From NCBI RefSeq assembly GCF_048403405.1, contig NZ_CP183129.1: a stretch of 64,000 nt of DNA; one strand, given 5' to 3'. A program made the position numbers and the translations under genes. Shown one piece after another: positions 1,705 to 64,000 of this stretch (position 1 is the first letter of the stretch; each line of letters begins with the position of its first letter). The notes under the pieces were generated by a model. The model was given only the letters and a program-made list of their open reading frames with translations, ran no database searches and was not told the origin of the DNA. Source of the stretch: Escherichia coli. GTDB taxonomy: Bacteria; Pseudomonadota; Gammaproteobacteria; Enterobacterales; Enterobacteriaceae.

Positions 1705-2420
1705 TTAAAGTCTTAATTGTCGATGATGAACCGCTTGCACGGGAGAACCTGCGCGTATTTTTGCAGGAGCAGAGCGATATTGAAATCGTTGGAGAGTGTT
1801 CAAACGCCGTAGAAGGGATCGGCGCGGTGCATAAACTGCGCCCGGATGTGCTGTTTCTCGATATCCAGATGCCGCGCATCAGTGGTCTGGAAATGGTGGG
1901 GATGCTCGACCCCGAACATCGACCGTATATCGTTTTTCTCACCGCGTTTGACGAATACGCTATTAAAGCCTTTGAAGAACATGCCTTTGACTATCTGCTG
2001 AAGCCAATTGATGAAGCGCGACTGGAGAAAACGCTGGCGCGTTTGCGTCAGGAACGCAGTAAGCAGGATGTTTCGCTGTTACCGGAAAATCAACAGGCGC
2101 TGAAATTTATCCCTTGTACGGGGCATAGTCGGATCTATTTGCTGCAAATGAAAGATGTGGCATTTGTCAGCAGTCGGATGAGCGGTGTCTACGTTACGAG
2201 TCACGAAGGGAAAGAGGGCTTTACCGAATTGACATTACGTACCCTGGAAAGTCGTACACCACTACTGCGCTGCCATCGTCAGTATCTGGTTAACCTCGCG
2301 CATTTACAGGAGATTCGTCTGGAAGATAACGGCCAGGCCGAGTTGATTTTGCGTAATGGCTTAACCGTGCCGGTCAGCCGCCGTTATCTGAAAAGCTTAA
2401 AAGAGGCGATTGGCCTGTAA
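1701..2420 (+). CDS. btsR: LytTR-family response regulator BtsR (YehT)
   Basis: ORF 1686..2420 trimmed to the ATG at 1701 ([16 protein letters not shown] receiver start); C-terminal LytTR-type region; translationally coupled to btsS. Confidence 0.9.
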
Positions 2421-2466
2421 AAGGCTGCTAAAATGGCTTTTTGCCTCATCAACACCTGAAGGCCTC

Positions 2467-2937
2467 ATGCTAAGTAACGATATTCTGCGCAGCGTGCGCT
2501 ACATTTTGAAAGCCAATAATAATGACCTGGTGCGTATTCTGGCGCTGGGTAATGTCGAAGCCACCGCGGAACAGATCGCCGTCTGGCTACGTAAAGAAGA
2601 CGAAGAGGGTTTTCAGCGTTGTCCGGACATTGTTTTGTCGTCATTCCTCAATGGCCTGATTTATGAAAAACGCGGCAAGGATGAGTCTGCTCCGGCACTG
2701 GAGCCGGAACGTCGCATTAATAACAACATCGTGCTGAAAAAATTACGCATCGCGTTTTCGCTGAAAACCGATGATATTCTGGCGATCCTCACCGAACAGC
2801 AGTTCCGCGTTTCGATGCCGGAAATTACGGCGATGATGCGTGCACCGGATCATAAAAACTTCCGCGAATGCGGCGATCAATTTTTACGTTATTTTCTGCG
2901 TGGACTGGCAGCGCGCCAGCATGTGAAGAAAAGCTAA
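2467..2937 (+). CDS. yehS: DUF1456-family protein YehS
   Basis: ORF 2410..2937 trimmed to the internal ATG at 2467 (MLSNDILRSVRYIL...), matching the recalled 156-aa YehS; synteny after btsR. Confidence 0.8.
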   Translation: MLSNDILRSVRYILKANNNDLVRILALGNVEATAEQIAVWLRKEDEEGFQRCPDIVLSSFLNGLIYEKRGKDESAPALEPERRINNNIVLKKLRIAFSLKTDDILAILTEQQFRVSMPEITAMMRAPDHKNFRECGDQFLRYFLRGLAARQHVKKS

Positions 2938-2946
2938 GACGGGTAT

Positions 2947-2972
2947 GGCGGCCATGCAAAAACATGGCCGCC
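2947..2972. terminator. bidirectional hairpin between convergent yehS and yehR
   Basis: Perfect 10-bp inverted repeat ggcggccatg / catggccgcc (2947-2956 and 2963-2972) with a caaaaa loop, lying between the two converging stop codons. Confidence 0.6.
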
Positions 2973-2978
2973 GACAGA

Positions 2979-3440
2979 TTATTTCACTTCTTTAAAACCA
3001 GCGGCTTTCATCACCAGTTCCATTTGCGCCATAGTGATACCTTTTTTGGCATCTTCAGCAGAAACGTTGATTCCTGAAATACCCTGCAGGGCTTTGAAAT
3101 CCACTTTTTCCATATCGATAGTCACGTTTTCCTGCGCGTAGGTATCGGTATAGGTTAATTTTTCTTCAACACCCGCGATGTTTTTGTATTTGGCGCTTAA
3201 CGGCTCAAGTGTCTTGGCAGCATCTTCTTTGGTGGTTGCACCAATGGAGGCAAATTGAATTTTGGTTTCAGAAGATTGCTTAAGCACCTTGTCACCTTTG
3301 TAGACATAGGTAATGGCAATTTCAGTACCGTTCAGATTGGCGCTGAATTTTTTCGATTCTTCTTTGTCACCGCAGCCAGCAAGAGAGAAAACCAGAACAG
3401 ATGCAACAACGAGGGAAAACAGCTTATTGAAAGCCTTCAT
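2979..3440 (-). CDS. yehR: lipoprotein YehR (DUF1307)
   Basis: ORF 2979..3452 trimmed to the ATG at 3440 (MKAFNKLFSLVVASVLVFSLAGC); signal peptide with lipobox LAGC. Confidence 0.8.
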   Translation of the reverse strand: MKAFNKLFSLVVASVLVFSLAGCGDKEESKKFSANLNGTEIAITYVYKGDKVLKQSSETKIQFASIGATTKEDAAKTLEPLSAKYKNIAGVEEKLTYTDTYAQENVTIDMEKVDFKALQGISGINVSAEDAKKGITMAQMELVMKAAGFKEVK

Positions 3441-10180: not shown

Positions 10181-10204
10181 AAAAAAACCTGCTGGTGAGG
10201 CAGG
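10181..10204 (-). terminator. rho-independent terminator of the OrzO-like sRNA
   Basis: Hairpin cctgc-tggtgag-gcagg (10188-10204) flanked on the plus strand by aaaaaaa (10181-10187), i.e. a 7-U tract after the hairpin on the minus strand. Confidence 0.65.
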
Positions 10205-10263
10205 TTCTTTTATTTACTATTTTCAGGCCCAACACCGCAGCCTGTGCAACATCGTGTTCCAAC
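10181..10263 (-). ncRNA. orzO: OrzO-like antisense sRNA (type I antitoxin), divergent from the zorO-like toxin gene
   Basis: Minus-strand promoter TTGCAA (10293-10298), 17-nt spacer, TATAAT (10270-10275); roughly 85-nt transcript ending at the terminator. Its 5' region is the reverse complement (19/20) of a leader segment of the downstream toxin mRNA. Confidence 0.6.
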
Positions 10264-10269
10264 GAACGA

Positions 10270-10320
10270 ATTATAACCATCGGTGGACCCCGTTGCAATT
10301 AAGATAATGAGATTTATAAT
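10270..10320. promoter_or_regulatory. divergent promoters sharing one palindromic -35 hexamer
   Basis: TTGCAA at 10293-10298 is its own reverse complement. A TATAAT lies 16 nt downstream on plus (10315-10320) and another 17 nt downstream on minus (10270-10275). Confidence 0.55.
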
Positions 10321-10409
10321 CCAGACGGTTGGGACGTTGCGCCGGATCGGACCAATTTTAAGTCCTGGCTACCGGACGGGTGGTGCTGCAGGTGGTGCCC
10401 TGATCCGGA

Positions 10410-10429
10410 GTGCAACATCGTGGTCCAAC
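10410..10429 (+). promoter_or_regulatory. predicted sRNA target site in the zorO-like leader
   Basis: gtgcaacatcgtggtccaac is a direct repeat (19/20) of 10244-10263, the region transcribed on the opposite strand as the sRNA 5' end. Confidence 0.55.
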
Positions 10430-10501
10430 ATACGTAAACCAGTATCGACAGGCAGTGTAAGGGTAAGGTGCTGGTGTTGCGCTCCTTAATAAGGAGAGCG
10501 G

Positions 10502-10591
10502 ATGGACACGCTGACACAAAAGTTAACCGTGCTCATTGCCGTACTGGAGCTATTAGTGGCTCTGTTACGGTTGATTGATTTGTTGAAGTAA
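10502..10591 (+). CDS. zorO: 29-aa hydrophobic type I toxin, ZorO-like
   Basis: Not in the ORF track (below its size cut-off). ATG at 10502 with AGGAG SD at 10492-10496; peptide MDTLTQKLTVLIAVLELLVALLRLIDLLK; roughly 175-nt leader; matches my recollection of ZorO from EHEC. Confidence 0.7.
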   Translation: MDTLTQKLTVLIAVLELLVALLRLIDLLK

Positions 10592-11025: not shown

Positions 11026-14000
11026 TTAATGGAAAATGACGTCGGGTGCGCTTAACGCTTCACTCAAATCAAACACATCAAGTTCGGCAAAAGTGACAGA
11101 TTTATTGTCACGGTATACATGAAGAGAACGGAAGCTCATTAGCGCTTTGCTATCAACATTGTAGTGGTTAAAACCGGATGAAAACTTAAGGACCAGCCGG
11201 TACTCGCCCAGGTCATAGACAAATGCATTCTCATAGCCTGACTCCCAGCCTTTGTATCGCATTCCCATAAGTTGCCCAACGGTAGCAGATTTACCTTCCC
11301 AGCGATTCAAACTATTACTGGCTGACTCGTCAGGCGTGAGCAGTACTGTGCGCCGTGCCAATTGGCGAAAAGGCGGCATAATTTCGTAATCGGCAAAAAG
11401 CTGTGCAAACTCACTGCGCATTTCTGCTGCCATTTCTAACGGGTGGGCAATGCCAATCAGAGCATCGGCAGGCAGGTCAATTGGCTCATCTTGCTCATTG
11501 CAGAACTCCCCCTCAGCGGCCACACGAAAGGCGTTGAGTAAACGACGCGGTTCATTTGCCGGATAAACACCCCATATTAATCGCTGAGTAACCAGACGGG
11601 TAAAGGGATGATTAACAAACAGAGAATGAAAATCTGCCAGCGACCAGCGTCGGGTGGTGCGCAGGGCAGTTTCAAGACGCGGGAGCAGGTTTTTGCTCAC
11701 CTGAGTGGCATCTTTTTTTAGCCCTTTTAGTCGGGCCAGTGCCTCGGGTGCTTTCAGTTGATCGTCATCGGCGCGCAACCGGGGAACGCTTTTCTGGCGA
11801 ACGTTTTGCTGATCAAAGATAACCGGGTTAAGGTTTTCATCGAAGCGAACGGTAAATTGCCGTGGACCAAAATCAAAAATCAACGCCTGCGGATCATCAA
11901 GACCCAGTGTTGGGACTAATCTGTCCGCTAACTGTTCCTGGCTTAGCCCTCGATTTTCTGCGACCACCTGAAGAAATTCCGCCGCGTTATCACGTAAGGG
12001 GCGGGATTTCGCCCGTTGCGATATATGATGCAGCTGTATCAGTGCCATATCATTATTCATCTGAGTAAGTATGTTCAGGCCGCTGACGGCACGGGCAGAT
12101 TTGCCTTCCTGTGGCCAGGCAAGGATCTGTGTCGTCAGATCCCGTGCCGTGCTTTCGTCGCCAAAGAGACTTAACGCCAGAAATGCCCAGTTGTCTTTTG
12201 CGGGAGCACCAGCTTGTTGCCACGCGGTGAAAAGATCCCAGGCAAAAGCTGCCAGCGTTTGCGGCTGGCAGAAAGTTTTCAGTTGTTCCAGTCCGCTATA
12301 AAAACGTCCGCCCTGGGTAAAGCGCAGCATTTCGCCGATAATTTCCAGTGCGTCATCGGTAACAGGCTGATTATTCGTGATAAGGCGCGGCCTGGACCAC
12401 ATTGCCGGCTGCCAGAAATCAGGGGCTTTTGGAATGCGTGTCGGGTAAATCTCTATTGGACTCTGTTTAAGTAAATGCTCCAGGGCAGGCCATACATCTG
12501 TACGCTGCCAGCGGTTTGCCGCGGTTTGCAGCAATTCACCATGTCCCTGTTCGTAAAGTAAACGTAGGGCAAGTAATGCAGCTTCGCTATTATCGCTGGA
12601 TTTGGTGAAGACAAGAGGGATAAGTGCAGTAGCCGTATGTTCCGGCCATTGTAAAATCCACTGGCGAGCCAGATCACGCTGCGCCGCGAAACGTCGCCAG
12701 ACGCGGGCAACGGGCAGGGCCAGTTCTGTTGCGCCAAAATTTAAAATTAACGGAAATGTTTCTTTTGGACGATATGAAAAAGCCAACAGCAGACCTGGTA
12801 GAGCATCCAATCCGAAGATACTGAGAAAATAGTCCTCACCCGCGAACAGATGCTTTTTCTCATTGATACGTAGCCAGAAAGTCAAAGCCATCTCACGCGG
12901 CAACTGTGCCAATAAATACAGGTTCCAGATACTCTTTTCCCGACGATAGCGTGAGTAGCTGTCATTTTCCCATATGTTAATTAACACTTCTACGTGACCG
13001 CTGCGAAGCGCCTGTTCTGCTAATTGTGCTTCCGGGGAGTTCCAGCCATTCAGGATCTCTTCAACCCGCCCCTGGTAGTAATGCCACTGAACAATGAGTG
13101 AATTGCGTGCAGCATCCAGTTTTCCGGGGAGTATATAATTCAGAAACAGCCATACATCATCTCCAAAACCCAGCTCCTGTAGTACAACTCGTCCACTTTT
13201 ATGTTCCATGCGTTCCGCAAGAGATTCCGTGCTGAAATAACGGGCAGACTCAGTGGCGGCAAGCCTCTCTCGTTCGCCTGGTTGCCAGTAAACTTGCGGC
13301 GTTAATTCGAACGGTGCCAAATCAAGACGTGGAACTGTCATTTTTTTCTTACTACGCCACGGTGGTGAAACGAGGATTTCAGGCATTTGGCTGTTATCGG
13401 TGCTATCAATAACCGTTTTAGGCGGTGCCGATAAATAACTATTCAGCACTGACCGGGCTTGAGTACTTAACCACGGCATCACCTCTTCTGCCAGTTGTGG
13501 CTGCGATGCCATCAGCGTTTGTAACAGCGTACGCCAGTATTCATCACGTGCTTTTTGCTGTGCAGGCAGCTTTTTGTCTTCGATGATTGGATAACCAGGG
13601 CGCGTAGGTGGTTCTTTTAGCGCCAGCAGTTCTGCCAGTGCGGCAAGCGTCGCATGGGGGAAATTTTTACTGTATTTAGCTACACGTTGCAGGCTGGGTT
13701 TGTTTTTATCAGCAACTAACAGCAGGGTGCGGATGACCTGCGGATGGTTAATTTGTACCAGCAGACTGCCGCAATCTTCTTTATGGGCATACATTGCCAG
13801 GCGTGGAACGGCTGCCAGTCCTTGTTCGCGCAAAAGGGCAGCGCAGGCCGCGTAGCCGAAGTGGTTTTCATGCGACATGTAGCTGGCTTCCCGATCGCTA
13901 AATATATCCTGGCTCCAGTAGCGTTCGAGTTTTCTCACCGCTCTGGGGTCAATAGCAACAACTTTTAACCACTCCTTAGAATGAAAATGAGTCCACGGGC

Positions 14001-14658
14001 ATTCAAGGCTTACCAACTCATTGGCGATTTCTGGTTTTTCCGGGAGGATCAGAGCAATAAAAGGGCGGCGAACTTTGGTTATTCCTGGCAGTGCGGCAAT
14101 GAGTTTGTCGGCGCAACGCTGCCAGCTGCTTTCCTCTGCCAGAGAGAGATGCTTACGCAGTCGGAGATCGAATTCGTTATAGGTTTCTGATCGATAACCA
14201 TAGCCATAATCCTCGTTCTGATACTGCAATGTCACTAGCAGAGGATCACTTTCATAACATCGTGTAATAAACTGGCGTGCAATCACCACCTCAGTCGCAT
14301 ATTCCAGTCCCTCTTGTTGGACGATTTCGTCGAGCAACTGTTGGCTATCATTTTGCGCGATACAGGCTAGCGCCGCCATTGTCCGGGCCGGAACTGAGGG
14401 TTTGTGTTCGCCAATCAAGTTGATGGCCTGCGTAATGGCCGACTGCCACTCCAGTGAAAAATTTTCATAACGCCAGACAATGTTTTTTTTCTTCTCAGCT
14501 TTTTGTAGCAATTCATCACCCAGTGTCTGGATGAGGCTTTCAGTGATAACAGGCACCGGTTCGCCCGGCCAACTGCGATGGCTGAGCGGCGTTTTGCCTT
14601 TTTTATATTTCAGTTCCACTTGGGCGTTATCCGCCAGCCACGGTAATTCCTTGTCCAT
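11026..14658 (-). CDS. yehI: DUF4132-family giant protein YehI (1210 aa)
   Basis: Full ORF from the track. C-terminal region shares motifs with the two upstream paralogs (DFGPRQFTV, HPLEM..FAQLFADYEIMPPFRQL); no N-terminal WGR domain. Confidence 0.85.
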   Translation of the reverse strand: MDKELPWLADNAQVELKYKKGKTPLSHRSWPGEPVPVITESLIQTLGDELLQKAEKKKNIVWRYENFSLEWQSAITQAINLIGEHKPSVPARTMAALACIAQNDSQQLLDEIVQQEGLEYATEVVIARQFITRCYESDPLLVTLQYQNEDYGYGYRSETYNEFDLRLRKHLSLAEESSWQRCADKLIAALPGITKVRRPFIALILPEKPEIANELVSLECPWTHFHSKEWLKVVAIDPRAVRKLERYWSQDIFSDREASYMSHENHFGYAACAALLREQGLAAVPRLAMYAHKEDCGSLLVQINHPQVIRTLLLVADKNKPSLQRVAKYSKNFPHATLAALAELLALKEPPTRPGYPIIEDKKLPAQQKARDEYWRTLLQTLMASQPQLAEEVMPWLSTQARSVLNSYLSAPPKTVIDSTDNSQMPEILVSPPWRSKKKMTVPRLDLAPFELTPQVYWQPGERERLAATESARYFSTESLAERMEHKSGRVVLQELGFGDDVWLFLNYILPGKLDAARNSLIVQWHYYQGRVEEILNGWNSPEAQLAEQALRSGHVEVLINIWENDSYSRYRREKSIWNLYLLAQLPREMALTFWLRINEKKHLFAGEDYFLSIFGLDALPGLLLAFSYRPKETFPLILNFGATELALPVARVWRRFAAQRDLARQWILQWPEHTATALIPLVFTKSSDNSEAALLALRLLYEQGHGELLQTAANRWQRTDVWPALEHLLKQSPIEIYPTRIPKAPDFWQPAMWSRPRLITNNQPVTDDALEIIGEMLRFTQGGRFYSGLEQLKTFCQPQTLAAFAWDLFTAWQQAGAPAKDNWAFLALSLFGDESTARDLTTQILAWPQEGKSARAVSGLNILTQMNNDMALIQLHHISQRAKSRPLRDNAAEFLQVVAENRGLSQEQLADRLVPTLGLDDPQALIFDFGPRQFTVRFDENLNPVIFDQQNVRQKSVPRLRADDDQLKAPEALARLKGLKKDATQVSKNLLPRLETALRTTRRWSLADFHSLFVNHPFTRLVTQRLIWGVYPANEPRRLLNAFRVAAEGEFCNEQDEPIDLPADALIGIAHPLEMAAEMRSEFAQLFADYEIMPPFRQLARRTVLLTPDESASNSLNRWEGKSATVGQLMGMRYKGWESGYENAFVYDLGEYRLVLKFSSGFNHYNVDSKALMSFRSLHVYRDNKSVTFAELDVFDLSEALSAPDVIFH

Positions 14659-14667
14659 GCTCTTTCC

Positions 14668-17600
14668 TTATTCAAACAGGGCTTCAATATCGTTAATGAG
14701 TTCGCTGGCGGTGATGTCGTCGAGCACGGAGAACTGCGCTTCCTGAGTTGAATTACTCCCCCAGCCATAGCTTTCCGCTTTGCCTTCCCATAGCCACAGC
14801 TTGCTTAAGACCTGCTCAGCGCTAAGATCGGCTGGTGACATACCCACCGCAAAACCTTCGTCGATTTCCATGATTAACGACCAGCGACCGAGAGGTTTGA
14901 TCATCCATCCGATCCAGCCTCCATCCTGTGGTTCGCCCTTTATCCAGCCTTTATTTGCCAGCCCCATGACCCGGCCGCTCGGGCATTTTCTGCCTGCCCA
15001 GCGGGTCAGTTCGCTGGCGTTGCGCTCGGCTTCTGTCAGGGCGTAACTGTTACGTTCAAGCTGACGGAACGGTGGTAGCAGTTCGTAGTCGGCAAAAAGC
15101 TGACCAAAGGCGACAGCATCCGTCGGTGATATTTCCAGAACGTGAGGAATGCCAACAGAGATATCGCCTTCCTGCAAGGTGAAAAGATCATCGTCAGCGG
15201 TGCTGTAGCTGTTATCTTCCGCCACCCTAAAGCACGCCTGTAGCTGGTTTTCGGCGCTATAAACGCCCCAAATCAGACGGCGGGTTAAGTGACGAACCAG
15301 CGGATGCTCAACCAGGAAGAGCTGAAAGTTTTCCGGCGACCAGCGGCGGCGCAGGCACATGGCGGATTCCAGCCTTGCTACCTGCTGGGCGGCGACGGTA
15401 CGCGCATCTTTTTTCAGCAATTTGTAGCGGTTAACAGCATCGTTTGCCTGTGATTCATCATCGCTTTTATTGGGTTTAGGTAAGTCTTTCAGGCGGCTGC
15501 CGGAAACATCGCGCACAAACGGTTTTAAGGTTTCATCAAAGCTGACGGTGAACTGCCGTGGGCCAAAATCCAGCAGCAGCGAACCGTTATCATCCAGACC
15601 GAGAGCCGGTGCTAACCGATCTTCAAGCTCCGCTACCGTCAGTTCGCGACTTTCGGCAATGTCGGCAATTTTCTCTTTCGCCCGCTCCTGTAATGCTTTG
15701 AATTTCAGTTTCTGGGCAATGCCGTTAAGCTGCATCAGGGCGATATCACTACTGATAGCGGCGAGGATATCCAGCCCGACGGTGGCGCGTTTATGCTGGG
15801 ATTCACCAGGCCAGGCGCGTATTAATGGCGTCAGTTTGCGGGCGGTGTCATCGTTACCGAGAACGCCTAACGCAGTGAACGCCCAACTCTCTTTCGACGG
15901 CGCGCCAGCGGTCTGCCAGGCGGTAAACAGATCCCAGGCAAATTCAGCCAGTGAGTCGGCGGTACAGGCATCTTTCACCTGCAATAATCCCGGATACAGC
16001 GCCTCCTCCTGATGGAAGCGGAGCATTTCACCGAGGTGCTGGAGTGCGCTATCGGGCAGTGATTGGGCATTTGCTTTTAATACCGGGCGGGTCCAGATCG
16101 ATGGCTGATAAAAGGCCGGAAGAGTGGGGATTTTTGTCGGGTGATTATCTAAGGGATCGAGCGCAAGCATAGCGTTCACCGCATCTGTTACTTCCGGCTG
16201 GTTATAACGCCGGGCGATTTCTTGCAGTAATGGTTGATGACCGTTTTCGGTAAGCATACGCAATGCAGCGCGGGCGTTATCCTGTGCTTCACCGGCTTTG
16301 CCGAGCGCCGCAGACAGCAGGCCGGTAATGGCGTGTTCCGGGTATTTCAGCAGCCAGGTGCGGGCGTCTTGTCGTAGGGTTTTGAGTTTGTTGAAGGCGC
16401 GGGCGACGGCAGGTGCCAGCTCACTCGCTGCGAAGTAATTCGTTATGGGCAAGGCTTCCTGTGGATAGCGTGCAAGTGAGTTTACTAACCCAGGTAATCC
16501 TTTGAGTCCAAAATGTAACATGGCGTATTCGGTATCGGTATGCGGAGATAGAGTAAGGGCATTCCATGCTCTTACTGCTTTCTCCAGCGGCAATGTTGTC
16601 AAAATCCCCAAATGCCAATAATGCCCGGTAGGTGAATGAAACACCTTAAATTCACTTATTAAAGTTGAATAATCTTCATTTAGCCATGCCTCAACTACCG
16701 CTTCGGGAGCTTTAATATATGTACCAGCGATCCGTCGTTGAAAACCCATCCTTGCCAACAGATTGGCAGTACTTTCTTCATGACTAACCGTGATGTGTTT
16801 TGAATACCAGATATATTTCGCCAAAAGTTGATTACTGATTTCTTCTGTCAGATAACTGATTGGCTCAATACCTAATGGTGCTAAATCAAGCACTGGAATC
16901 GGCGATTTTTTCTTTTTCGAAAGCCATGGTGGGGAGACTACTATGGCCGGCAGTAGATCGGCGCTGGCATGGTTTGAGGGCTGTGTCAGTTGTTGCTGGC
17001 ATGATTTCAGCACTGCAACTGCGGGTGTCGAAAGCCAGGGAATGACCTGTTCTGCTAGTGTCGGTTGCGAGATAAGCATCGTCATTAGCATAATGCGCCA
17101 ACTATTCTCTTCTTTTTGCACTAGAAGTTCCGCCAGTGCTGCCAGTGCTGCGTGTGGGAACGCAGCGCAGGCTTTCGTCATTCGATCGTGACAGCGTTTA
17201 GTATGCCCTGCTACACGTATAAGCAGTGTTAATGCGAACGGATGATTGATATGACGCAACACATCGGCGCAGTAGTCACTTGCGACATAGGGAGCAAATC
17301 GGGGCAGGGCCGCAACACCTTGCTCCTGTAATACGGTGGCTGACCATATCGCACCACAATAGTAATCATCAAAAATGGCATATGGCTCGTGATATTTTTC
17401 TAATGAGGCAAGAATGTGCTCATCAGTCGCCACTATTTTTAGCCACTCCAGCGAGGGTAATTTCTTTTGCCCCAGTAGACGCTGGGCAATTTCATGTGCA
17501 ATTTCTGGTTTTTCGGGCAATAACAAAGCAATTAATGGTTGCCGCCATTCTGGAATATGTGGAACTGCGGCAATAAGTTTTTGTGCACATTTTTGCCAGA

Positions 17601-18462
17601 GAGACTCTTCCGCCAGTGATAAATGTTTACGTAGGCGTAATTCAAAGCTGGAATATTGCTGCAAATAATCAGGTGAAATGCCAGACGACAGGAAAACAAT
17701 ATTATTGTTGACATAATCCCATTCAATAGATATTTGTTGAAGATGTATTATTACATCAGTAGCATATTCCAGACCGCCTTCCTGAATAATCTGATCCATA
17801 ACATCCGCACGCTCTTTATATCTCGTGCAGTGCAGTTCAAGTGCCGCGAGTACAGCCATTACCGGTGATGGTAATTTTGTCGTTTTCGGGCTGTTAATCA
17901 GATCGATCGCCTGAGCGATGAAGTTTTGCCACTCTAAAGTACAGGCGCTGAAGTCAAATGTAGCTGTTTTGTTATCCCGTTGCGACACGCCACAGGCTAA
18001 GCGACGTAACTGGGTTAATTTATCTACAGGTGTAACAGGATCTCCGGGAAAGCGGCGATGGCTTAAGGTGGTGGGTACGACTTCAAGCGGAAAAACGACA
18101 GCAATATCTTTTGCCAGCCACGGTAAAATAACGTCTGTATTTTTGTCAGCCACGTAGAATTCTGGTGTAACTGAGGGCTGTTCCTGAATGATGGTAGAAA
18201 AGTCAGATAATTCGAGAGATTTCGTTACCGTTCGAGTATGTTTCGATGTAGCATTCTCCGCATGTTCCACATACCCCTTTTTCGTTTTCTCCGCAATCAG
18301 CTTGAGTTCCGCTTTTTCCGCCGCCGCAGCATCTGCAAAGCTTTTTACCTGACTTTGCCCGTTGGTGCCGACTTTGCCCCAACTGATATTCAGTTCGTTT
18401 CCCTGCTGCTCCACCGCCCAGAATTTATGTGATTTTTCGTCCTGATAAATATAGGTTTTCAT
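14668..18462 (-). CDS. MolR-like giant protein, N-terminal WGR domain plus DUF4132 (1264 aa)
   Basis: N-terminus MKTYIYQDEKSHKFWAVEQQGNELNISWGKVGTNGQ (WGR signature); C-terminal DUF4132-like region; 9-nt gap to yehI. Confidence 0.85.
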   Translation of the reverse strand: MKTYIYQDEKSHKFWAVEQQGNELNISWGKVGTNGQSQVKSFADAAAAEKAELKLIAEKTKKGYVEHAENATSKHTRTVTKSLELSDFSTIIQEQPSVTPEFYVADKNTDVILPWLAKDIAVVFPLEVVPTTLSHRRFPGDPVTPVDKLTQLRRLACGVSQRDNKTATFDFSACTLEWQNFIAQAIDLINSPKTTKLPSPVMAVLAALELHCTRYKERADVMDQIIQEGGLEYATDVIIHLQQISIEWDYVNNNIVFLSSGISPDYLQQYSSFELRLRKHLSLAEESLWQKCAQKLIAAVPHIPEWRQPLIALLLPEKPEIAHEIAQRLLGQKKLPSLEWLKIVATDEHILASLEKYHEPYAIFDDYYCGAIWSATVLQEQGVAALPRFAPYVASDYCADVLRHINHPFALTLLIRVAGHTKRCHDRMTKACAAFPHAALAALAELLVQKEENSWRIMLMTMLISQPTLAEQVIPWLSTPAVAVLKSCQQQLTQPSNHASADLLPAIVVSPPWLSKKKKSPIPVLDLAPLGIEPISYLTEEISNQLLAKYIWYSKHITVSHEESTANLLARMGFQRRIAGTYIKAPEAVVEAWLNEDYSTLISEFKVFHSPTGHYWHLGILTTLPLEKAVRAWNALTLSPHTDTEYAMLHFGLKGLPGLVNSLARYPQEALPITNYFAASELAPAVARAFNKLKTLRQDARTWLLKYPEHAITGLLSAALGKAGEAQDNARAALRMLTENGHQPLLQEIARRYNQPEVTDAVNAMLALDPLDNHPTKIPTLPAFYQPSIWTRPVLKANAQSLPDSALQHLGEMLRFHQEEALYPGLLQVKDACTADSLAEFAWDLFTAWQTAGAPSKESWAFTALGVLGNDDTARKLTPLIRAWPGESQHKRATVGLDILAAISSDIALMQLNGIAQKLKFKALQERAKEKIADIAESRELTVAELEDRLAPALGLDDNGSLLLDFGPRQFTVSFDETLKPFVRDVSGSRLKDLPKPNKSDDESQANDAVNRYKLLKKDARTVAAQQVARLESAMCLRRRWSPENFQLFLVEHPLVRHLTRRLIWGVYSAENQLQACFRVAEDNSYSTADDDLFTLQEGDISVGIPHVLEISPTDAVAFGQLFADYELLPPFRQLERNSYALTEAERNASELTRWAGRKCPSGRVMGLANKGWIKGEPQDGGWIGWMIKPLGRWSLIMEIDEGFAVGMSPADLSAEQVLSKLWLWEGKAESYGWGSNSTQEAQFSVLDDITASELINDIEALFE

Positions 18463-18474
18463 TGCAAAGTCCTT

Positions 18475-21400
18475 TTAATCAAAAAGTGATTCGATGTCGT
18501 TAATGAGTTCGCTGGCGGTGATGGCATCAAGCGCGGAGAACGTGAGCGAGGGCTGTGTACTGTAGCGTTCCCCTGGTGAAGTGATTTTTACGCTTTCAAC
18601 AGGTAGCAGGTCGCTATACCCCGTTTCGCCATAAATTAATGAAAAATGTTCTGTTTCAAGTTCGAGAGCGCCATAAGGGGTAGATTTGCGCATCGCATAG
18701 ACGCTGCCGCTTTCTTCCAGACGTTGCCAGCCTCGACGTTCCAGCCCGACAATGCGCCCGGCCTGGCAAAGACGTCCTTGCCAGCGTATCAATTCATGGG
18801 TATCACGTTCATTATCAGTAAGGTGGTAATAACCACGATCGAGTTGGCGAAAGGGAGGAAGCTTTTCGTAATCAGCATAAATTTGCCCAAATGCAGTGGC
18901 GGATTCAGGAGATATTTCCAGCACATGCGGTATACCGATGTTTCCTGCTGGCAGCGTGAATAACTCATCCTGCGCATCGCTGTAAGTGCTGTCTTCTGCG
19001 ACCCGGAAGCAGGCGATCAGCGTGTTTTCCTCAGTATATACCCCCCATAACACCCGTCGGGTTAAGTGACGTACCAGCGGATGCTCCACCAGAAACAGGC
19101 GGAACTGCTCTGCCGTCCAGCGTCTGCGCTGGCACATATCCTGCTCCAGACGATCAATCTGCTGGCTGGCAATGGCGTGCACATCTTTCTTCAATTGTTT
19201 GAAGAGGTTAACGGAGTCAGTTGCCAGTGTTTGATCATCGCTCTGATTTGGTTTGGGTAAATCTTTCAGGACTTTGCCGTTTGCATCGTGCACTACAGGT
19301 TTTAAGGTTTCGTCAAAACCAACGGTGAATTGACGTGGGCCGAAATCCAGTATCAGCGAGCCACTGTTATCAAGCCCTAAATCTGGAGCCAGGCGGTCTT
19401 CCAGTTCAGCCATAGTCAGCCCACGGTTTTCAGCAACTATGTTGATTTTCTCGCGGGCATGTTCCTGTAATGCTTTGAATTTAATTTTTCGCGCGATGCC
19501 ATTAAGCAGCATTAGCGCAACATCGCTGCCAATATCAGCTAATACATCCAGCCCGTAAACCGCGCGTTTATGCTGGGATTCACCCGGCCAGGCACGGATA
19601 AGCGGGGTTAATTTACGTGCGGTGTCGTCATTGCCTAAAATCCCAAGCGAAGTAAATGCCCAGTTTTCTTTTGCGGGTGCGCCAGCTTCTGTCCATGCCG
19701 TGTAGAGATCCCAGCCAAAGTCAGCCAGTGATTCGTGGGTGAAGGTCTCTTTGATGGTCGCCAGCCCAGCGTAGGAGGTAATGTCGCGTGGAAAGCTCAA
19801 CATTGTGCCCAGGTGGCGCATAGCGTCATCTGGCAGAGGCAGGTTGTTACTTTTAAGCCGTGGTCTGCGCCATAAGGTGAACTGATAAAAGCCGGGCAGT
19901 GGGGCGATTTTAGCGGGATATTCTTCCAGCGGATCGCTATCGAACAATGTTGCCAGCGCAGCTAAAACATCAGGTTGGTTGTATCTCCGGCCGATTTCTT
20001 CAATCGTTTCTCGCTGGTTTAATTTCACTAGCAGGCGGAATGCCTGGCGGGCATATTCCCGATTTTGGCACGGTTTGCCCAGCGCCAAAGGCAGTAGCCC
20101 GGCGGCGGCATGGCGCGGGTTATTTGCCAGCCAATTAATGGCATCCTTGTAAGCCATTTTTTTCTGTAATCGCTGCGCCATTGGTAAGGCTAGTTCACTG
20201 GCCCCAATAAAGAGGGTGAATATCCACAGTCGTTGATGATCTCGTTGCAAGCAGGTCATAAACGCAGGAATGGCCGTACTACCAAAAACTGCCAGAATCT
20301 CTTTCTCACCTGAATATCGCTCCTCAATGATTATTTGGTTGAGAAATGAAATCGCCTGTTGTCCCGGTAAGTAACAAAGCGCAGATAGATTCCAGCTTTT
20401 GTTGGCATTGTTGTGATATTTCGCAAACTCAGCTTTTAGTGCTGGAAAATCAAAGCGCAACAAGGCATCAACAGCGCTTTGCGGTATATATTTTTTTTCA
20501 TGTAAGTCATCTTCGCAATGCAGCCATTCATTAAAACCTAATTGCCAAAGGATTTGTTGTTCTGGTGTAAAAGGAATGAAAGATGTCTCCCAGCTTTCTT
20601 TTTCAATTAGTGGCAGGTCGGTAAATAAGGTTTGCTGTGATGACTGATATTGCGCGATTTCACTGAATCTGGATATGTCAGTATGACTGATTAACTCTGT
20701 AATTCCTGGCGTGATGTCAGTGACTGCAGGGATGGGAAGCACCGGTAAATCAAATACGGGTATTACATTCGTTTTCTTATTTATTACCCACGGTGGAGCG
20801 ACAAACAGCTCCGGCAACATATCCGCAGTGGCGTATTCACATTCTTCAGCGACTAACTGAGTACGACATTCAGATAAGATGCCTGCCGCTTTAGCATTAA
20901 CCCAGGGAATGACGTCAGTGACTAAATCTGGCGTGGCGGTAATCAGTTTGACAAGCGCTTTACGCCACTGTGCATCTTCATGTATTGCCAGTAAAGTTGC
21001 ATAAGCGGCAAGAGCCGCAGCGGGATGTTTTTGACAGGCTTTGCTTAAGTATTCCAGGTGCTTTTTCTTGCCAATTACACCGAGGATCAGAATTTGAATC
21101 GCATCCGGGTGATTCGTTTTCCATAGCCATTTGACAAGATCTTCAGTCTCGCTGATGCGCTCGAAGAGATAAGTGGGATTGTCAGAATGCTCTTCCGTAA
21201 ACTCAAGAAGTATCCGGCTTACACCGCGCACCCCATTATTTGCCAGCAACATTGCCAGATAAGCGCGAAAATCATGATACAACGGTGGGAAGTCGTATTT
21301 TTCTGCTGTAGTCAGAGCGGCGTCATCGGTTACCACCAGTCTTAACCAGGTCATCGCCGGAACGTTTTGATCTGCATAACGTAGCGCCATAGCATTGGCA

Positions 21401-22272
21401 ATATCCGGGCGTTCAGGGAGCAGTAACGCCGCAAAAGGTTGCCGTGCTGGGGATAGCGAGGGAATAGCAGCGAGAACTTTATCTACACAGCGTTGCCACT
21501 CATCTTCTGAAGCGAGTGAAAGATGATGACATAGACGTTGATGCCAGTTCGGTAGTGATTCTGCTTTGAGATCAGGGGGAATAATGGTGGTGACGTCGGC
21601 TTTTACTGGTTTATATTTGAGTTGAAGAGCGAGAAGGGCGATTTCAACGGTAGTTTCCAGACCACAGCGAATGACTAAGTCATCGACCAGTTCATCTGTA
21701 GAGTAAGAGTTCCATAAATTCCAGAGCAATGCCGCATCAGATTGTATACTTCCTGTTTGTTGATTATTCAGAATTCGCCTTTGTAACTCGGCAAACGCCA
21801 GCTGCCAGTTTTCAGGATAAGAGCGGTAATTATTGTCGGGGTCATATGCCCTGGTGTTATTCGCGATGCGCTTCCATATTTGGCCATCTTTGTACAGATA
21901 ATTGATCTCTCTGGGGCGAGAGCGATGAGGAAAAGCAAATCGATTAATATCGCCAGTTACCGGAATGACTGCATCATCAGCCACCCATGGGCGTTTGTTT
22001 TTACTCTCAGGGGAGGTTTCAACTTCAGGAGTGGCTTTGGTGATGGGGGGGATATGCACGTTTGCTAAAGCATTTTCCACATAGCCTTTTTTCGTTTTCT
22101 CTGCGATCAGCTTAAGCTCCGCTTTTGCCGCTGCCGCAGCATCCGCAAAACTTTTTACCTGGTTTTGCCCTTTGGTGCCAACTTTTCCCCAACAGATATG
22201 CAACTCGTTTCCCTGTTGCTCCACCGCCCAGAATTTATGTGATTTTTCGTCCTGAAAGATAAAGTGCCTCAT
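18475..22272 (-). CDS. MolR-like giant protein, N-terminal WGR domain plus DUF4132 (1265 aa), second paralog
   Basis: N-terminus MRHFIFQDEKSHKFWAVEQQGNELHICWGKVGTKGQ, near-identical to the adjacent paralog over about 60 aa; conserved C-terminal block; 12-nt gap to the next gene. Confidence 0.85.
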   Translation of the reverse strand: MRHFIFQDEKSHKFWAVEQQGNELHICWGKVGTKGQNQVKSFADAAAAAKAELKLIAEKTKKGYVENALANVHIPPITKATPEVETSPESKNKRPWVADDAVIPVTGDINRFAFPHRSRPREINYLYKDGQIWKRIANNTRAYDPDNNYRSYPENWQLAFAELQRRILNNQQTGSIQSDAALLWNLWNSYSTDELVDDLVIRCGLETTVEIALLALQLKYKPVKADVTTIIPPDLKAESLPNWHQRLCHHLSLASEDEWQRCVDKVLAAIPSLSPARQPFAALLLPERPDIANAMALRYADQNVPAMTWLRLVVTDDAALTTAEKYDFPPLYHDFRAYLAMLLANNGVRGVSRILLEFTEEHSDNPTYLFERISETEDLVKWLWKTNHPDAIQILILGVIGKKKHLEYLSKACQKHPAAALAAYATLLAIHEDAQWRKALVKLITATPDLVTDVIPWVNAKAAGILSECRTQLVAEECEYATADMLPELFVAPPWVINKKTNVIPVFDLPVLPIPAVTDITPGITELISHTDISRFSEIAQYQSSQQTLFTDLPLIEKESWETSFIPFTPEQQILWQLGFNEWLHCEDDLHEKKYIPQSAVDALLRFDFPALKAEFAKYHNNANKSWNLSALCYLPGQQAISFLNQIIIEERYSGEKEILAVFGSTAIPAFMTCLQRDHQRLWIFTLFIGASELALPMAQRLQKKMAYKDAINWLANNPRHAAAGLLPLALGKPCQNREYARQAFRLLVKLNQRETIEEIGRRYNQPDVLAALATLFDSDPLEEYPAKIAPLPGFYQFTLWRRPRLKSNNLPLPDDAMRHLGTMLSFPRDITSYAGLATIKETFTHESLADFGWDLYTAWTEAGAPAKENWAFTSLGILGNDDTARKLTPLIRAWPGESQHKRAVYGLDVLADIGSDVALMLLNGIARKIKFKALQEHAREKINIVAENRGLTMAELEDRLAPDLGLDNSGSLILDFGPRQFTVGFDETLKPVVHDANGKVLKDLPKPNQSDDQTLATDSVNLFKQLKKDVHAIASQQIDRLEQDMCQRRRWTAEQFRLFLVEHPLVRHLTRRVLWGVYTEENTLIACFRVAEDSTYSDAQDELFTLPAGNIGIPHVLEISPESATAFGQIYADYEKLPPFRQLDRGYYHLTDNERDTHELIRWQGRLCQAGRIVGLERRGWQRLEESGSVYAMRKSTPYGALELETEHFSLIYGETGYSDLLPVESVKITSPGERYSTQPSLTFSALDAITASELINDIESLFD

Positions 22273-33226: not shown

Positions 33227-33325
33227 TTTATTAACGCGATTGTAAAACTGCGGTTTTTACTCGTTTACAACGCGTGCGCTGGACATTACCATCCTCCTCT
33301 GCGATTTATCATCGCAATCAAACGA

Positions 33326-33445
33326 CTCGGGGTGCCCTTCTGCGTGAAGGCTGAGAAATACCCGTATCACCTGATCTGGATAATGCCAGCGTAGGGAAGT
33401 CACGGACCACCAGGTCATTGCTTCTTCACGTTATGGCAGGAGCAA
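33326..33445 (+). promoter_or_regulatory. TPP riboswitch (THI element) in the thiM leader
   Basis: Conserved aptamer motifs ggggtgcccttctgcgtgaaggctgagaaatacccgtatcacctgatctggataatgccagcgtagggaa immediately upstream of the thiM SD and ATG. Confidence 0.85.
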
Positions 33446-49584: not shown

Positions 49585-49671
49585 AAAAAATAAGCCCGTG
49601 TAAGGGAGATTACACAGGCTAAGGAGGTGGTTCCTGGTACAGCTAGCATTTTATGGGTTATGTTTTTCAGC
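49585..49671 (-). ncRNA. cyaR: CyaR (RyeE) sRNA
   Basis: Minus-strand sequence matches recalled CyaR (GCUGAAAAACAUAACCCAUAAAAUGCUAGCUGUACCAGGAACCACCUCCUUAGCCUGUGUAAUCUCCCUUACACGGGCUUAUUUUUU): terminator hairpin plus U6, anti-SD-like CCUCCUUA; adjacent to yegQ. Confidence 0.8.
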
Positions 49672-49705
49672 GAAACGGATGATAACCTTAATAAATGCAG
49701 CTGTA

Positions 49706-61300: not shown

Positions 61301-61512
61301 GCAGAGGTCATGACATCCGGGCTCGCACCTGGGTAGAGCGTGACTACCTGAATGGTCGGATAGTCCACTTCCGGCAGCGCCGAAACGGGCAGGGCTCTAT
61401 AACCGATAATCCCAGCGAGTAAGATCGCCACCATCAGCAGCGTGGTGGCGACAGGACGCATAATAAACAGGCGCGACGGGCCGCCTGTGCTGCTCGGGGG
61501 TAACACCTGCAT
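58390..61512 (-). CDS. mdtB: RND multidrug efflux pump subunit MdtB
   Basis: 1040 aa; RND permease paralogous to MdtC. Confidence 0.95.
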
Positions 61513-62759
61513 CAGGAGCGTGCTCCTTTTTTCGCGTATTCGCGGCTGGTGGCTTTCTCTTCCGGAGTGGTGGCGCTCTGGGCTTCCACTACTTCCACTT
61601 TCGCCCCTTCGGTCAGGCGATCAATGCCGTCTGTCACTACGCGGTCGCCCGCAGAAATACCTGCGCGGATCACCACTTTCTGACTGTCCTGAATGCCCGG
61701 CGTCACCAGATGTTTGCTGACCTTGTTTTCGCTATTCAGCACCCAGACAAAATGGCCTTCGTTGCCCATTTGCAGAGCGGCGGTGGGGATCACCACGGCG
61801 TTTTGTTCGGTGTCGACTAACATACGCGCGTTAACAAACTGATTGGGAAACAGCGCATCATCCTGATTATTAAAGCGTGCTTTCACTTTAATCGTACCGG
61901 TAGTGGCATCGATTTGGTTATCGAGGCTTAACAGCGTGCCTTCACTTAATTTCTTCGAGTTGGTGCGATCCCAGGCTTCTACCACCAGCGGTTTTCCGGT
62001 TTTTTGCGCCTGTACTACGGTAGCGATATCGCTTTCCGGCAGGGTAAAGAGCAAATCGATAGGATGCGTCTGGGTGATCACCACAATCCCGGTGGTATCA
62101 CCACTGGAGATTTGGTTACCAACATCAACCTGCTTGAGACCAACGCGACCATCGATTGGTGCGGTGATGCGGCTCCAGTCGAGCTGCAGCTGCGCGCTGG
62201 CGACGCTTGCTTCATCAGCCTTAATGGTGCCTTCGGTTTCACTGACCAGCGCCTGTTGGGCATCCAGCTCCTGGCGGGAGACAAGATTGGTTTTTGCCAG
62301 TTGTTGATAACGCGCCAGGTCACGGCGGGCGTTGGCAAGCGTGGCTTTATCTTTTGCCAGTTGGCCCTGGGCTTGTGCTAATGCAACTTTGAACTGGCTT
62401 GGGTCAATTTCTGCCAGTAAATCGCCTGCTTTGACCTGCTGGCCTTCCTGGAAATGTAACGCCATCAGTTGACCGTCCACGCGGCTGCGCACCGTAACGG
62501 TATTAGCGGCGGTAATGGTGCCAAGCCCGGTGAGATAACGTGGCACAGCTTGTTCTACGGCAGTCGCCGCCTGAACCGGGGCTAATGGGCCGGCACGCAT
62601 ACCACGGCGACCACCCGCTGGCGATTGCTGCGCTTGTTTCGTCGCCCCTGGGGCTGCACTCTGGGAGTCATTGCGGCCTTGCCAGAACCAGAATGCGGCG
62701 ATGGCGGCGATAACCAACACGATTACGATTACCCAACGGGATTTATAACTGCCTTTCAT
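61512..62759 (-). CDS. mdtA: RND efflux membrane fusion protein MdtA
   Basis: ORF 61512..62906 trimmed to the ATG at 62759 ([14 protein letters not shown]..., 415 aa); TM anchor then periplasmic adaptor domains. Confidence 0.9.
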
Positions 62760-62812
62760 CGTTAAGAGTTTCTCTTCCTGAAACGTTTCACGGAATGATA
62801 CTAGTGTAGCCA

Positions 62813-62830
62813 GCCAATAAGGGAGAAAAA
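62813..62830 (-). promoter_or_regulatory. BaeR box upstream of mdtA
   Basis: Minus strand reads TTTTTCTCCCTTATTGGC, matching the recalled BaeR consensus TTTTTCTCCATDATTGGC; about 55 nt upstream of the mdtA start. Confidence 0.65.
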
Positions 62831-62984
62831 TGGAGGAATTATGAAACACTGTCGGGAATCGTCTGAATGACGGGCACATTTGCGAGCACGCATCCAGTAA
62901 TAACACATGAAACTATTTTATCTGCAAGTTAGCGATAGACTGCTTGCATGGCGAAAGGAGGTAAGCCGCCGTTTTCAGCGGGAC

Positions 62985-63130
62985 GCTGAAACGGGAAAGC
63001 CCCTCCCGAGGAAGGGGCCTTAAATAAGGAAAGGGTCATGATGAAGCTACTCATCATCGTGGTGCTCTTAGTGATTAGCTACCCAGCATACTAAGACTAC
63101 CAGGGCGGGGGAAACCCCGCTCTACCCTCA
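62985..63130 (-). ncRNA. sibB: Sib-family antisense sRNA, copy 1 (approximate bounds)
   Basis: Candidate minus-strand promoter TTGACA (63160-63165), 17-nt spacer, TACTTT (63137-63142); transcript would cover the whole ibs ORF and SD in antisense. Ends are estimated. Confidence 0.45.
63038..63094 (+). CDS. ibsB: Ibs-family 18-aa hydrophobic toxin (IbsB-like)
   Basis: Not in the ORF track (below its size cut-off). atgatgaagctactc... encodes MMKLLIIVVLLVISYPAY; SD aaggaaaggg upstream. Confidence 0.75.
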   Translation: MMKLLIIVVLLVISYPAY

Positions 63131-63312
63131 CTCCTGAAAGTATGCCTTCACGATAAGATTGTCAATCTGCAGGCTTTGCAGTCTGCGATCCTGCCAGCAA
63201 ATATTCTTTGCGAGACGTTACGCAATAATCACACTGGAAACTATTTTATCCGCAAGTCAGCGATAGACTGCATACAGGGCGAAAGGAGGTAAGCCGACGA
63301 TTTCAGCGGGAC

Positions 63313-63458
63313 GCTGAAACGGGAAAGCCCCTCCCGAGGAAGGGGCCTTAAATAAGGAAAGGGTCATGATGAAGATACTCATCATCGTGGTGCTCTTAGT
63401 GATTAGCTACCCAGCATACTAAGACTACCAGGGCGGGGGAAACCCCGCTCTACCCTCA
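63313..63458 (-). ncRNA. Sib-family antisense sRNA, copy 2 (approximate bounds)
   Basis: Same promoter elements shifted by 328 bp (TTGACA at 63488-63493 on the minus strand). Confidence 0.45.
63366..63422 (+). CDS. Ibs-family 18-aa toxin, second IbsB-like copy
   Basis: MMKILIIVVLLVISYPAY; differs from copy 1 by L4I. Confidence 0.75.
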   Translation: MMKILIIVVLLVISYPAY

Positions 63459-63644
63459 CTCCTGAAAGTATGCCTTCACGATAAGATTGTCAATCCGCAG
63501 GCTTTGCAGTCTGCGATCCTGCCAGCAAATATTCTTTGCGAGTCGTTACGCAATAATCACAGAGGAAACTATTTTGGTCACGCGTTAGCGATAGACTGCA
63601 TTCAGGGCGAAAGGAGGTAAGCCGACGATTTCAGCGGGACGCTG

Positions 63645-63793
63645 AAACGGGAAACCCTCTCCCGGAGAAGAGGGCTTTTAATAAGGAAAGGGTTATGATG
63701 AAGCACGTCATCATACTGGAGATACTCTTAGTGATTAGCTTCCAGGCTTACTAAGAACACCAGGGGGAGGGAGAAACCTCTCCCTAACCCTCA
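63645..63793 (-). ncRNA. sibA: Sib-family antisense sRNA, copy 3 (approximate bounds)
   Basis: TTGACA at 63823-63828 on the minus strand; the -10 region has diverged (TAATTT-like); antisense to the third ibs ORF. Confidence 0.4.
63695..63754 (+). CDS. ibsA: Ibs-family 19-aa toxin (IbsA-like variant)
   Basis: MMKHVIILEILLVISFQAY; same leader context; carries a Glu in the hydrophobic core. Confidence 0.65.
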   Translation: MMKHVIILEILLVISFQAY

Positions 63794-63974
63794 CTCCTGA
63801 AATTATGTCACTCCGCCCTTAGTGTCAATCGACGGCTCTCCGTTCTTGCGAGGCGAATAGCAAAATTTTCTGCGCCGCCGGGCCTAATTCTGAAAGTTTC
63901 TTCGTTTGCTCTTATTTCATTATTGCAATCGGTATGATACCGGGCCTCAATAATTCTCTAAGAAAGGATTTCTT

Positions 63975-64000
63975 ATGAGCGAACAAATCACGTTTGCCAC
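63975..64000 (+). CDS. 5' end of an unidentified ORF truncated by the window edge
   Basis: ATG at 63975 preceded by AAGGA SD at 7-nt spacing; reads MSEQITFA...; only 26 nt are visible. Confidence 0.35.

Follow-up and report, generated by a model that had tools for sequence, protein, structure and literature searches.

What does the third toxin-antitoxin unit between mdtA and yegL represent in the Escherichia coli DNA analysed here, a stretch of 64,000 nucleotides that we call the window? K-12 carries two such units, and the third copy could be a duplication peculiar to the strain, an error of assembly, or an ordinary state of a locus whose copy number varies. Our answer is drawn from the anatomy of the array, its Rfam membership, its synteny and its population frequencies, all of them observed directly; expression, toxicity and repression at this locus we infer from the K-12 and Salmonella literature. 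We consider it very likely that the mdtA-yegL region consists of three tandem Ibs/Sib (SIB/QUAD repeat) type I toxin-antitoxin units, two of IbsB type followed by one of IbsA type, and that this arrangement belongs to a common and old copy-number polymorphism.

The gap between the two flanking genes measures 1,216 bp and is occupied by a single array of three head-to-tail units. On the left, mdtA (61512-62759, minus strand, start codon at 62757-62759) was placed from the RefSeq annotation of an identical locus and from the ORF list, and diverges from the array; on the right, yegL begins on the plus strand at 63976 and runs past the end of the window (63976-64000), as placed from the same annotation. 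By these flanking genes the array sits at the position that is occupied in K-12, in the mdtA-yegL intergenic region of Escherichia. Tandem Repeats Finder (TRF) delimits the array at 62898-63807, with a period of 328, 2.8 copies, 90% matches and a score of 1439, and a repeat search of the window gives start-to-start spacings of 328 and 328-335. Unit 1 (62879-63206) is IbsB-like, adjoins mdtA and is defined by TRF, by repeat families D1 and D2 and by alignment of the units. Unit 2 (63207-63534), a second IbsB-like copy, and unit 3 (63535-63870), which is of IbsA type and adjoins yegL, are defined by TRF, the repeat search and the unit alignment. The description in the initial annotation of three tandem units of about 328 bp holds, at 62879-63870.

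The three units are not equally related. Units 1 and 2 are 93.9% identical and differ at 20 of 328 positions, and unit 3 is 22-25% divergent, with 74.7% identity to unit 1 and 78.0% to unit 2. Between units 1 and 2 the differences are concentrated in the leader, where 18 of 94 columns differ, as against only 2 of the 243 remaining columns. These figures bear on the simplest objection to a third unit, namely that it was created by the mis-expansion of a tandem repeat during assembly and that the true locus has two units, as in K-12. Mis-assembly from short reads can indeed occur in tandem repeats of about 330 bp. However, the units can be told apart by the differences just given, and an independent complete genome, GN02461 (NZ_CP095533.1), carries the 1.4-kb array region at 100% identity and departs from the whole window by 3 mismatches in 64,000 bases. 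Collinear three-unit arrays are also found in about 40% of complete genomes, and other strains that share the rare IbsA allele of this locus have three units too. Because the units diverge by 6-25% and the identical array is present in an independent complete genome, an assembly artefact is very unlikely.

On the minus strand, the SIB_RNA family of Rfam (RF00113) matches each unit over its full length, model positions 1-147, with scores of 141.6 bits in unit 1 (63165-63023), 140.8 bits in unit 2 (63493-63351) and 145.9 bits in unit 3 (63828-63680). The gathering score of the family is 56, and the E-values, 1e-30 to 1e-32, are far beyond chance. This model begins at the -35 box; the ends of the transcripts were taken from the sibA and sibB annotation of K-12 MG1655 (NC_000913.3), aligned to the window. 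They place a SibB-like RNA of 136 nt, Sib1, at 62994-63129 (130 of 136 positions shared with K-12 sibB), where it covers the ORF, its ribosome-binding site and 44 nt of leader; a second SibB-like RNA of 136 nt, Sib2, at 63322-63457 (129/136); and SibA, of 144 nt, at 63649-63792 (141/144 with K-12 sibA), all three on the minus strand. Each ibs ORF lies wholly inside the span of its Sib RNA, as do the AAGGAAAGGG ribosome-binding region and some of the leader, and each RNA overruns its ORF by 35-38 nt past the stop codon and by 44-46 nt past the ATG. The three RNAs have a multi-hairpin predicted fold that closes with a terminal hairpin of 11 bp followed by UUU, a predicted terminator. Compared with shuffled sequences, the folds are unusually stable, with a z of -3.9 for Sib1 (-59.6 kcal/mol), -3.7 for Sib2 and -4.4 for SibA.

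Upstream of each RNA a putative promoter can be read from the sequence of the minus strand. For Sib1 (63137-63165) it comprises TTGACA at 63165-63160, a 17-nt spacer, TACTTT and 7 nt to the +1; for Sib2 (63465-63493), TTGACA at 63493-63488 with the same spacer, the same TACTTT and 7 nt to the 5' end; and for SibA (63800-63828), TTGACA at 63828-63823, again a 17-nt spacer, TAATTT and 7 nt to the 5' end. A generic sigma-70 promoter and terminator scan of 62700-64000 made no call at these Sib promoters and terminators, because their -10 boxes match only at 3 of 6 positions and their U-tracts are only 3 nt long; their positions were hence taken from homology to the K-12 ncRNA annotation. Boxes, Rfam matches and K-12-mapped ends agree with the earlier proposal that every unit carries a minus-strand TTGACA promoter placed to make a fully antisense RNA. 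PGAP leaves the Sib RNAs without annotation in the records examined, though all three are clearly present here.

The same strand contains two ATG-initiated ORFs of 42 codons in Sib1 and Sib2 (62929-63057 and 63257-63385) whose products are 90% alike in the ORF list, and these could be taken as real genes, which would make the repeat protein-coding on that strand. However, the palindromic ATGATGA...TCATCAT hairpin generates them mechanically; unit 3 has the frame split into ORFs of 27 and 34 aa that differ in sequence, and most of each 42-aa ORF lies beyond the mapped 3' end and terminator of the Sib RNA. On these three grounds minus-strand coding was rejected, and we give it practically no credence.

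The plus strand of each unit carries a short hydrophobic ORF of 18-19 codons, translated exactly as in the initial annotation. The first (63038-63094) encodes the 18-residue peptide MMKLLIIVVLLVISYPAY, which is WP_001386901.1 and matches K-12 IbsB at 17 of 18 residues. The second (63366-63422) encodes MMKILIIVVLLVISYPAY, also of 18 residues, which is WP_012767742.1 and matches IbsB at 16 of 18. The third, ibsA (63695-63754), encodes the 19-residue MMKHVIILEILLVISFQAY, which is WP_072146903.1 and matches K-12 IbsA at 18 of 19. All three ORFs are intact, with a start codon, a ribosome-binding site and a stop codon. Their identical RefSeq sequences, which are also the three Ibs family toxins that PGAP annotates at the identical locus of GN02461, bear the name 'type I toxin-antitoxin system Ibs family toxin'. 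An NCBIfam HMM scan, for which each peptide was lengthened to the 20-residue minimum by two in-frame codons from upstream, found no Ibs model for the three peptides and returned only noise (E > 0.4). Membership of the peptides therefore rests on identity to named RefSeq proteins, and near-identity to K-12 IbsA and IbsB gives their homology to characterised Ibs toxins. Peptide identities, RefSeq names and the position between mdtA and yegL together confirm that the units are ibs/sib. One point in the earlier description needs correction: K-12 IbsB is MMKLLIIVVLLVISFPAY, and neither IbsB-like peptide of this array is equal to it, for both end in YPAY where the K-12 peptide ends in FPAY, and the peptide of unit 2 has I4 where K-12 has L4. 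A search of the conserved leader (in unit 1, about 62910-62945) for an ibs promoter gave no convincing -35/-10 pair; in K-12 too, this promoter and the 5' end of the mRNA are poorly defined (PMC2943612).

How these units would work can be read by analogy with better studied copies. Sib RNAs span all of the ibs coding sequence together with the ribosome-binding site, and act through two target recognition patches, TRD1 and TRD2 (PMC2943612; PMC4147584). The two patches are independent: TRD1 is the P5 loop, aimed at the ORF, and TRD2 is a single-stranded stretch before the terminator, aimed at the translation initiation region and aided by the P6 hairpin loop; they occupy the most variable parts of the family and determine cognate specificity (PMC2943612). 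The Sib RNA blocks translation, and RNase III processes the duplex (PMC4147584). When made in excess, IbsC depolarises the membrane (PMC8309996); the IbsA of Salmonella acts bacteriostatically and lowers ATP, and it both binds subunits a and b of Fo and inhibits the Fo sector of ATP synthase (bioRxiv 10.1101/2025.05.26.656083). Toxicity and its relief by Sib are known for the K-12 Ibs proteins and for Salmonella IbsA (PMC2943612, PMC8309996, PMC4147584, bioRxiv 10.1101/2025.05.26.656083). By analogy with K-12, the plus strand of each unit here would encode a hydrophobic membrane peptide of 18-19 residues which, when over-made, would depolarise the membrane and lower ATP. From its TTGACA promoter the minus strand would yield Sib RNA in abundance, 136-144 nt long and with full complementarity to some 45 nt of leader as well as to the ribosome-binding site and the ORF. 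Pairing would take place through TRD1, the P5 loop, which falls within the ORF, and through TRD2, the single-stranded stretch that spans the ribosome-binding site, and would lead to blocked translation and RNase III-dependent decay.

How common the third unit is was addressed in the complete E. coli genomes of RefSeq. The 1.4-kb region was matched in 5,419 of 5,426 of them. For a census of copy number we took a systematic sample of 60 rows down the ranking of 5,422 matching RefSeq records, classed by the annotated CDS under each match and by spot checks of individual loci. Three units were found in 24 of the 60 records and two, the K-12 state, in 25; four units were found in 8 records, one unit in 2, and the remaining record gave no match at the mdtA-yegL locus. 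A second sample of 40 rows yielded the same proportions. The locus hence holds one to four units, two and three being about equally common, and the three-unit state is ordinary: about 40% of the complete E. coli genomes show it, and RefSeq annotates it already. Arrays of four units occur in BL21(DE3), ST131 and HSP60, and arrays of three in O157:H7, O7:H15 ST70 and NY1601; PGAP names every one of these array ORFs 'type I toxin-antitoxin system Ibs family toxin'. The seven Ibs genes of O157:H7 Sakai (PMC2887945) fit with a three-unit array at mdtA-yegL. In these other three- and four-unit arrays of E. coli the tandem organisation is the same, always ending in an IbsA unit beside yegL.

Compared with ibsA/sibA and ibsB/sibB of K-12 (SIB, formerly QUAD1), the array described here has the same locus and the same unit architecture, with three units where K-12 has two. 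The K-12 pair was correctly given in the initial annotation, as NC_000913.3 lists sibA/ibsA and sibB/ibsB between yegL and mdtA, where sibA (144 nt) and sibB (136 nt) enclose their ibs genes. The array is also alike to ldr/rdl (LDR repeats) and to zorO-orzO/zorP-orzP in that a small hydrophobic toxin and an antisense RNA are duplicated within one intergenic region at a copy number that varies between strains (PMC2887945). The sequences are unrelated, however, and the pairing of Rdl and Orz RNAs is confined to the 5' UTR, in contrast to Sib, whose overlap takes in the whole ORF (PMC3919570). Tandem duplication and variable copy number of ibs-sib loci, with lineage-specific duplications and losses of ibs, were reported by Fozo et al. 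2010 (PMC2887945).

A different reading of the third unit, put forward in the initial annotation, is that this strain expanded its array through a recent duplication of a K-12-type ibsB/sibB unit. The Sib-coding parts of units 1 and 2 are one base apart, which looks recent, and in sister Escherichia genomes the locus has one unit or, at most, two: one each between mdtA and yegL in the E. albertii type strain and in Escherichia sp. MOD1-EC7003, and two in strain E69. Citrobacter werkmanii has one IbsA-like unit, with flanks that are only partly confirmed. These four loci were returned by a scan of genome contigs with a 25-nt leader motif and are too few to fix the ancestral copy number. Against a recent event stand the leaders. 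Those of units 1 and 2 differ at the 18 of 94 columns noted above, and a leader comparison shows that both types recur in unrelated strains, each being shared with unit 1 or unit 2 of those strains; the duplication therefore predates the strain. Moreover, three- and four-unit arrays are found in lineages as distant as O157:H7, ST131, BL21(DE3) and O7:H15, and neither IbsB-like peptide is equal to K-12 IbsB.

The K-12 unit itself points in the opposite direction. When compared with the three-unit array of NY1601, the K-12 ibsB unit differs at 1 of 94 columns from the leader of unit 1 and at 2 of 168 from the body of unit 2, as against 19 and 11 differences from the opposite halves. It looks like a chimera of a unit-1 leader and a unit-2 body, the footprint of a deletion by unequal crossover, and this suggests that K-12 more likely came to its two units by contraction. 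In O157:H7 a unit-2-type leader is joined to an IbsA body, which adds to the evidence that units exchange sequence. As for the near-identical Sib parts, they are better explained by gene conversion, since the closest relatives with the same IbsA allele (ST70 and M114) have a WPAY patch at TRD1 in unit 1. Taken at the scale of the strain, an expansion by recent duplication of an IbsB-like unit is thus not supported, and we regard it as improbable; at the scale of the genus it is plausible, and the array probably grew within Escherichia, long before the present strain. Our preferred reading, held with high confidence, is that three units are one state of an old one-to-four polymorphism made by unequal crossing-over and gene conversion, neither a novelty of the strain nor an artefact; the sequence itself offers nothing against it.

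Within this polymorphism, the pair of IbsB-like units shows a particular state. Sib1 and Sib2 differ by a single base, C at 63047 and A at 63375, which lies in the AUGAUGA hairpin loop and changes codon 4 from Leu in unit 1 to Ile in unit 2. The sequences of TRD1 and TRD2 are identical between the two units and, by the rules of Han et al., Sib1 and Sib2 should for this reason cross-repress, giving redundant double cover of both toxins. This is not the state of the three other three-unit arrays compared (NY1601, O7:H15 ST70/M114 and O157:H7), in which codons 4-5 and TRD1, the two variable patches, both differ between the IbsB-like units. Unit 1 looks as if it had been converted towards unit 2, because the closest relatives, O7:H15 ST70 and M114, carry WPAY in unit 1.

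Across strains, variation of IbsB type falls in these two patches: codons 4-5, in the AUGAUGA hairpin loop, and codons 13-17, in the P5 loop, that is, TRD1. The combinations vary by strain and most of them occur, LL, IL or WI at the first patch being found with YPAY, FPAY or WPAY at the second. The pattern suggests a shuffling of the modules, and the creation of new cognate pairs, through unequal crossover and gene conversion between neighbours. We put forward, tentatively and as a minority view among the readings of these sequences, that the array may be a recombination cassette for antitoxin specificity, whose effect would be reversed in this lineage: units 1 and 2 would have been homogenised, Sib1 and Sib2 made redundant, and IbsA perhaps disarmed or altered in its target.

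The last of these elements refers to codon 9 of ibsA (63719-63721), which reads GAG and encodes Glu, the K-12 codon being GTG, for Val. The V9E allele was searched for with a 55-mer centred on the variant base and so designed that no seed word of 28 bases could leave this base out; the allele was found in 15 of 5,426 complete genomes, the Val allele being found in 4,474. Other strains with V9E (O7:H15 ST70 and M114) also have three units. The change puts a charged residue midway along the hydrophobic core and lowers the mean Kyte-Doolittle hydropathy of residues 5-14 from 4.20 to 3.43. Since the toxicity of IbsC is reported to be determined by its hydrophobic centre (Mok 2010, cited through PMC9860968 and PMC8309996), V9E may attenuate IbsA, and the third toxin is perhaps not fully functional. 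SibA would remain fully complementary to its target, because both genes share the same DNA.

This raises the possibility of partial decay: at least one unit, that of IbsA V9E foremost, would no longer encode an active toxin, and relaxed selection would let the repeats persist, as with other families of intergenic repeats. Besides the hydropathy of V9E and what is reported of IbsC, it would agree with the observation that K-12 ibsA is tolerated even without SibA (PMC2943612), and relaxed selection is one of the options raised by Fozo 2010 (PMC2887945). On the other hand, none of the three ORFs is interrupted and all three Sib genes score in Rfam as full-length family members. In an alanine scan of Salmonella IbsA only H3 and L11 were essential (bioRxiv 10.1101/2025.05.26.656083), and the K3 and L11 equivalents, as read from the sequences, are kept in all three peptides here. 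The V9E allele, too, persists in the 15 sequenced genomes, which come from several continents and hosts. We consider partial decay a possible but rather doubtful description of the locus.

The feature is already known, and RefSeq has names for all three genes. The family and its mechanism have been in print since 2008-2010, as have the tandem organisation and the variation of copy number between strains, and the present analysis carries little weight as a discovery; as a check it is of practical use. K-12 is not the reference state for this locus: arrays of two, of three and of four units are each common, the last being the state of BL21(DE3). The near-identical Sib1/Sib2 pair is a natural variant for testing how much divergence Sib RNAs need to discriminate their targets, and the rare V9E allele of IbsA is a natural variant for testing which residues make Ibs peptides toxic.

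The mdtA-yegL gap contains three tandem ibs/sib units, the first two IbsB-like and the third of the IbsA type. Over the 136 nt in which Sib and ibs overlap in each of units 1 and 2, the two IbsB-like copies differ by a single base (position 63047 in unit 1 versus 63375 in unit 2), and this one difference between their antisense RNAs, Sib1 and Sib2, falls within the AUGAUGA hairpin, in its apical loop. The leaders of the same two units differ at 18 of 94 positions. On alignment, this pattern looks like gene conversion confined to the functional core of both units.

A minus-strand ORF of 42 codons also begins inside each of Sib1 and Sib2 (62929-63057 and 63257-63385, respectively), a mechanical product of the ATGATGA hairpin, whose reverse complement provides the start. 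These ORFs extend beyond the Sib terminator and their equivalent in unit 3 is split into 27 and 34 codons, so they are probably non-coding.

In unit 3, codon 9 of IbsA (63719-63721) is GAG, encoding Glu, and not GTG, encoding Val, which places a charged residue within the hydrophobic core of the peptide. Among the 5,426 complete genomes of E. coli, only 15 have the Glu allele, against 4,474 with the Val allele. Carriers of the Glu allele include O7:H15 ST70, MS 69-1 and M114, the latter from a mountain pygmy possum.

Comparison of the whole window with the complete genome of GN02461 (NZ_CP095533.1, 3423738-3487737, reverse complement) yields only three differences, at 20170, 22620 and 47144, so the source of the window is GN02461 or a strain very closely related to it. 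Annotation of that genome shows three consecutive large paralogous genes on the minus strand (DUF4132, WGR+DUF4132 and yehI; ~11026-22272), of ~1,210-1,265 aa, upstream of the yehK-yehL region. Two RNA elements of the window are ordinary in E. coli: the thiM TPP riboswitch (33318-33414, plus strand, 71.8 bits), which RefSeq annotates, and the CyaR/RyeE sRNA (49588-49673, minus strand, 100.7 bits), for which the GN02461 feature table has no entry.

The yehK-yehL gap itself holds another type I toxin-antitoxin module besides ibs/sib, in one copy (10181-10591). It comprises a 29-codon ORF on the plus strand, MDTLTQKLTVLIAVLELLVALLRLIDLLK (10502-10591), which we take to be a ZorO-like peptide, and an OrzO-P antitoxin on the minus strand (10256-10181), recovered as an Rfam match scoring 101.3 bits (gathering score, 60). 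For GN02461, RefSeq lists neither a CDS nor an RNA between yehK and yehL. According to Fozo 2010 (PMC2887945), most E. coli have this locus in tandem or single form, and MG1655 lacks it.

In the ibs/sib array of O157:H7 PV15-279, a leader of the unit-2 type precedes the IbsA-type body of unit 3 and unit 2 has a leader of the last-unit type; leaders and bodies have therefore been swapped between units. In strain 8600, an IS150 copy (1990-3142 of the extracted locus) occupies the expected place of the IbsA unit and the start of yegL, and one IbsB unit is left. Finally, we compared the ibsB unit of K-12, which has two units, with the three-unit array of strain NY1601. It differs from the unit-1 leader in 1 of 94 columns and from the unit-2 body in 2 of 168, versus 19 and 11 differences from the opposite halves. 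Judged by these alignments, ibsB of K-12 lies in a chimeric unit that joins the leader of unit 1 to the body of unit 2 from a three-unit array, which suggests that the two-unit state of K-12 arose by unequal-crossover deletion.
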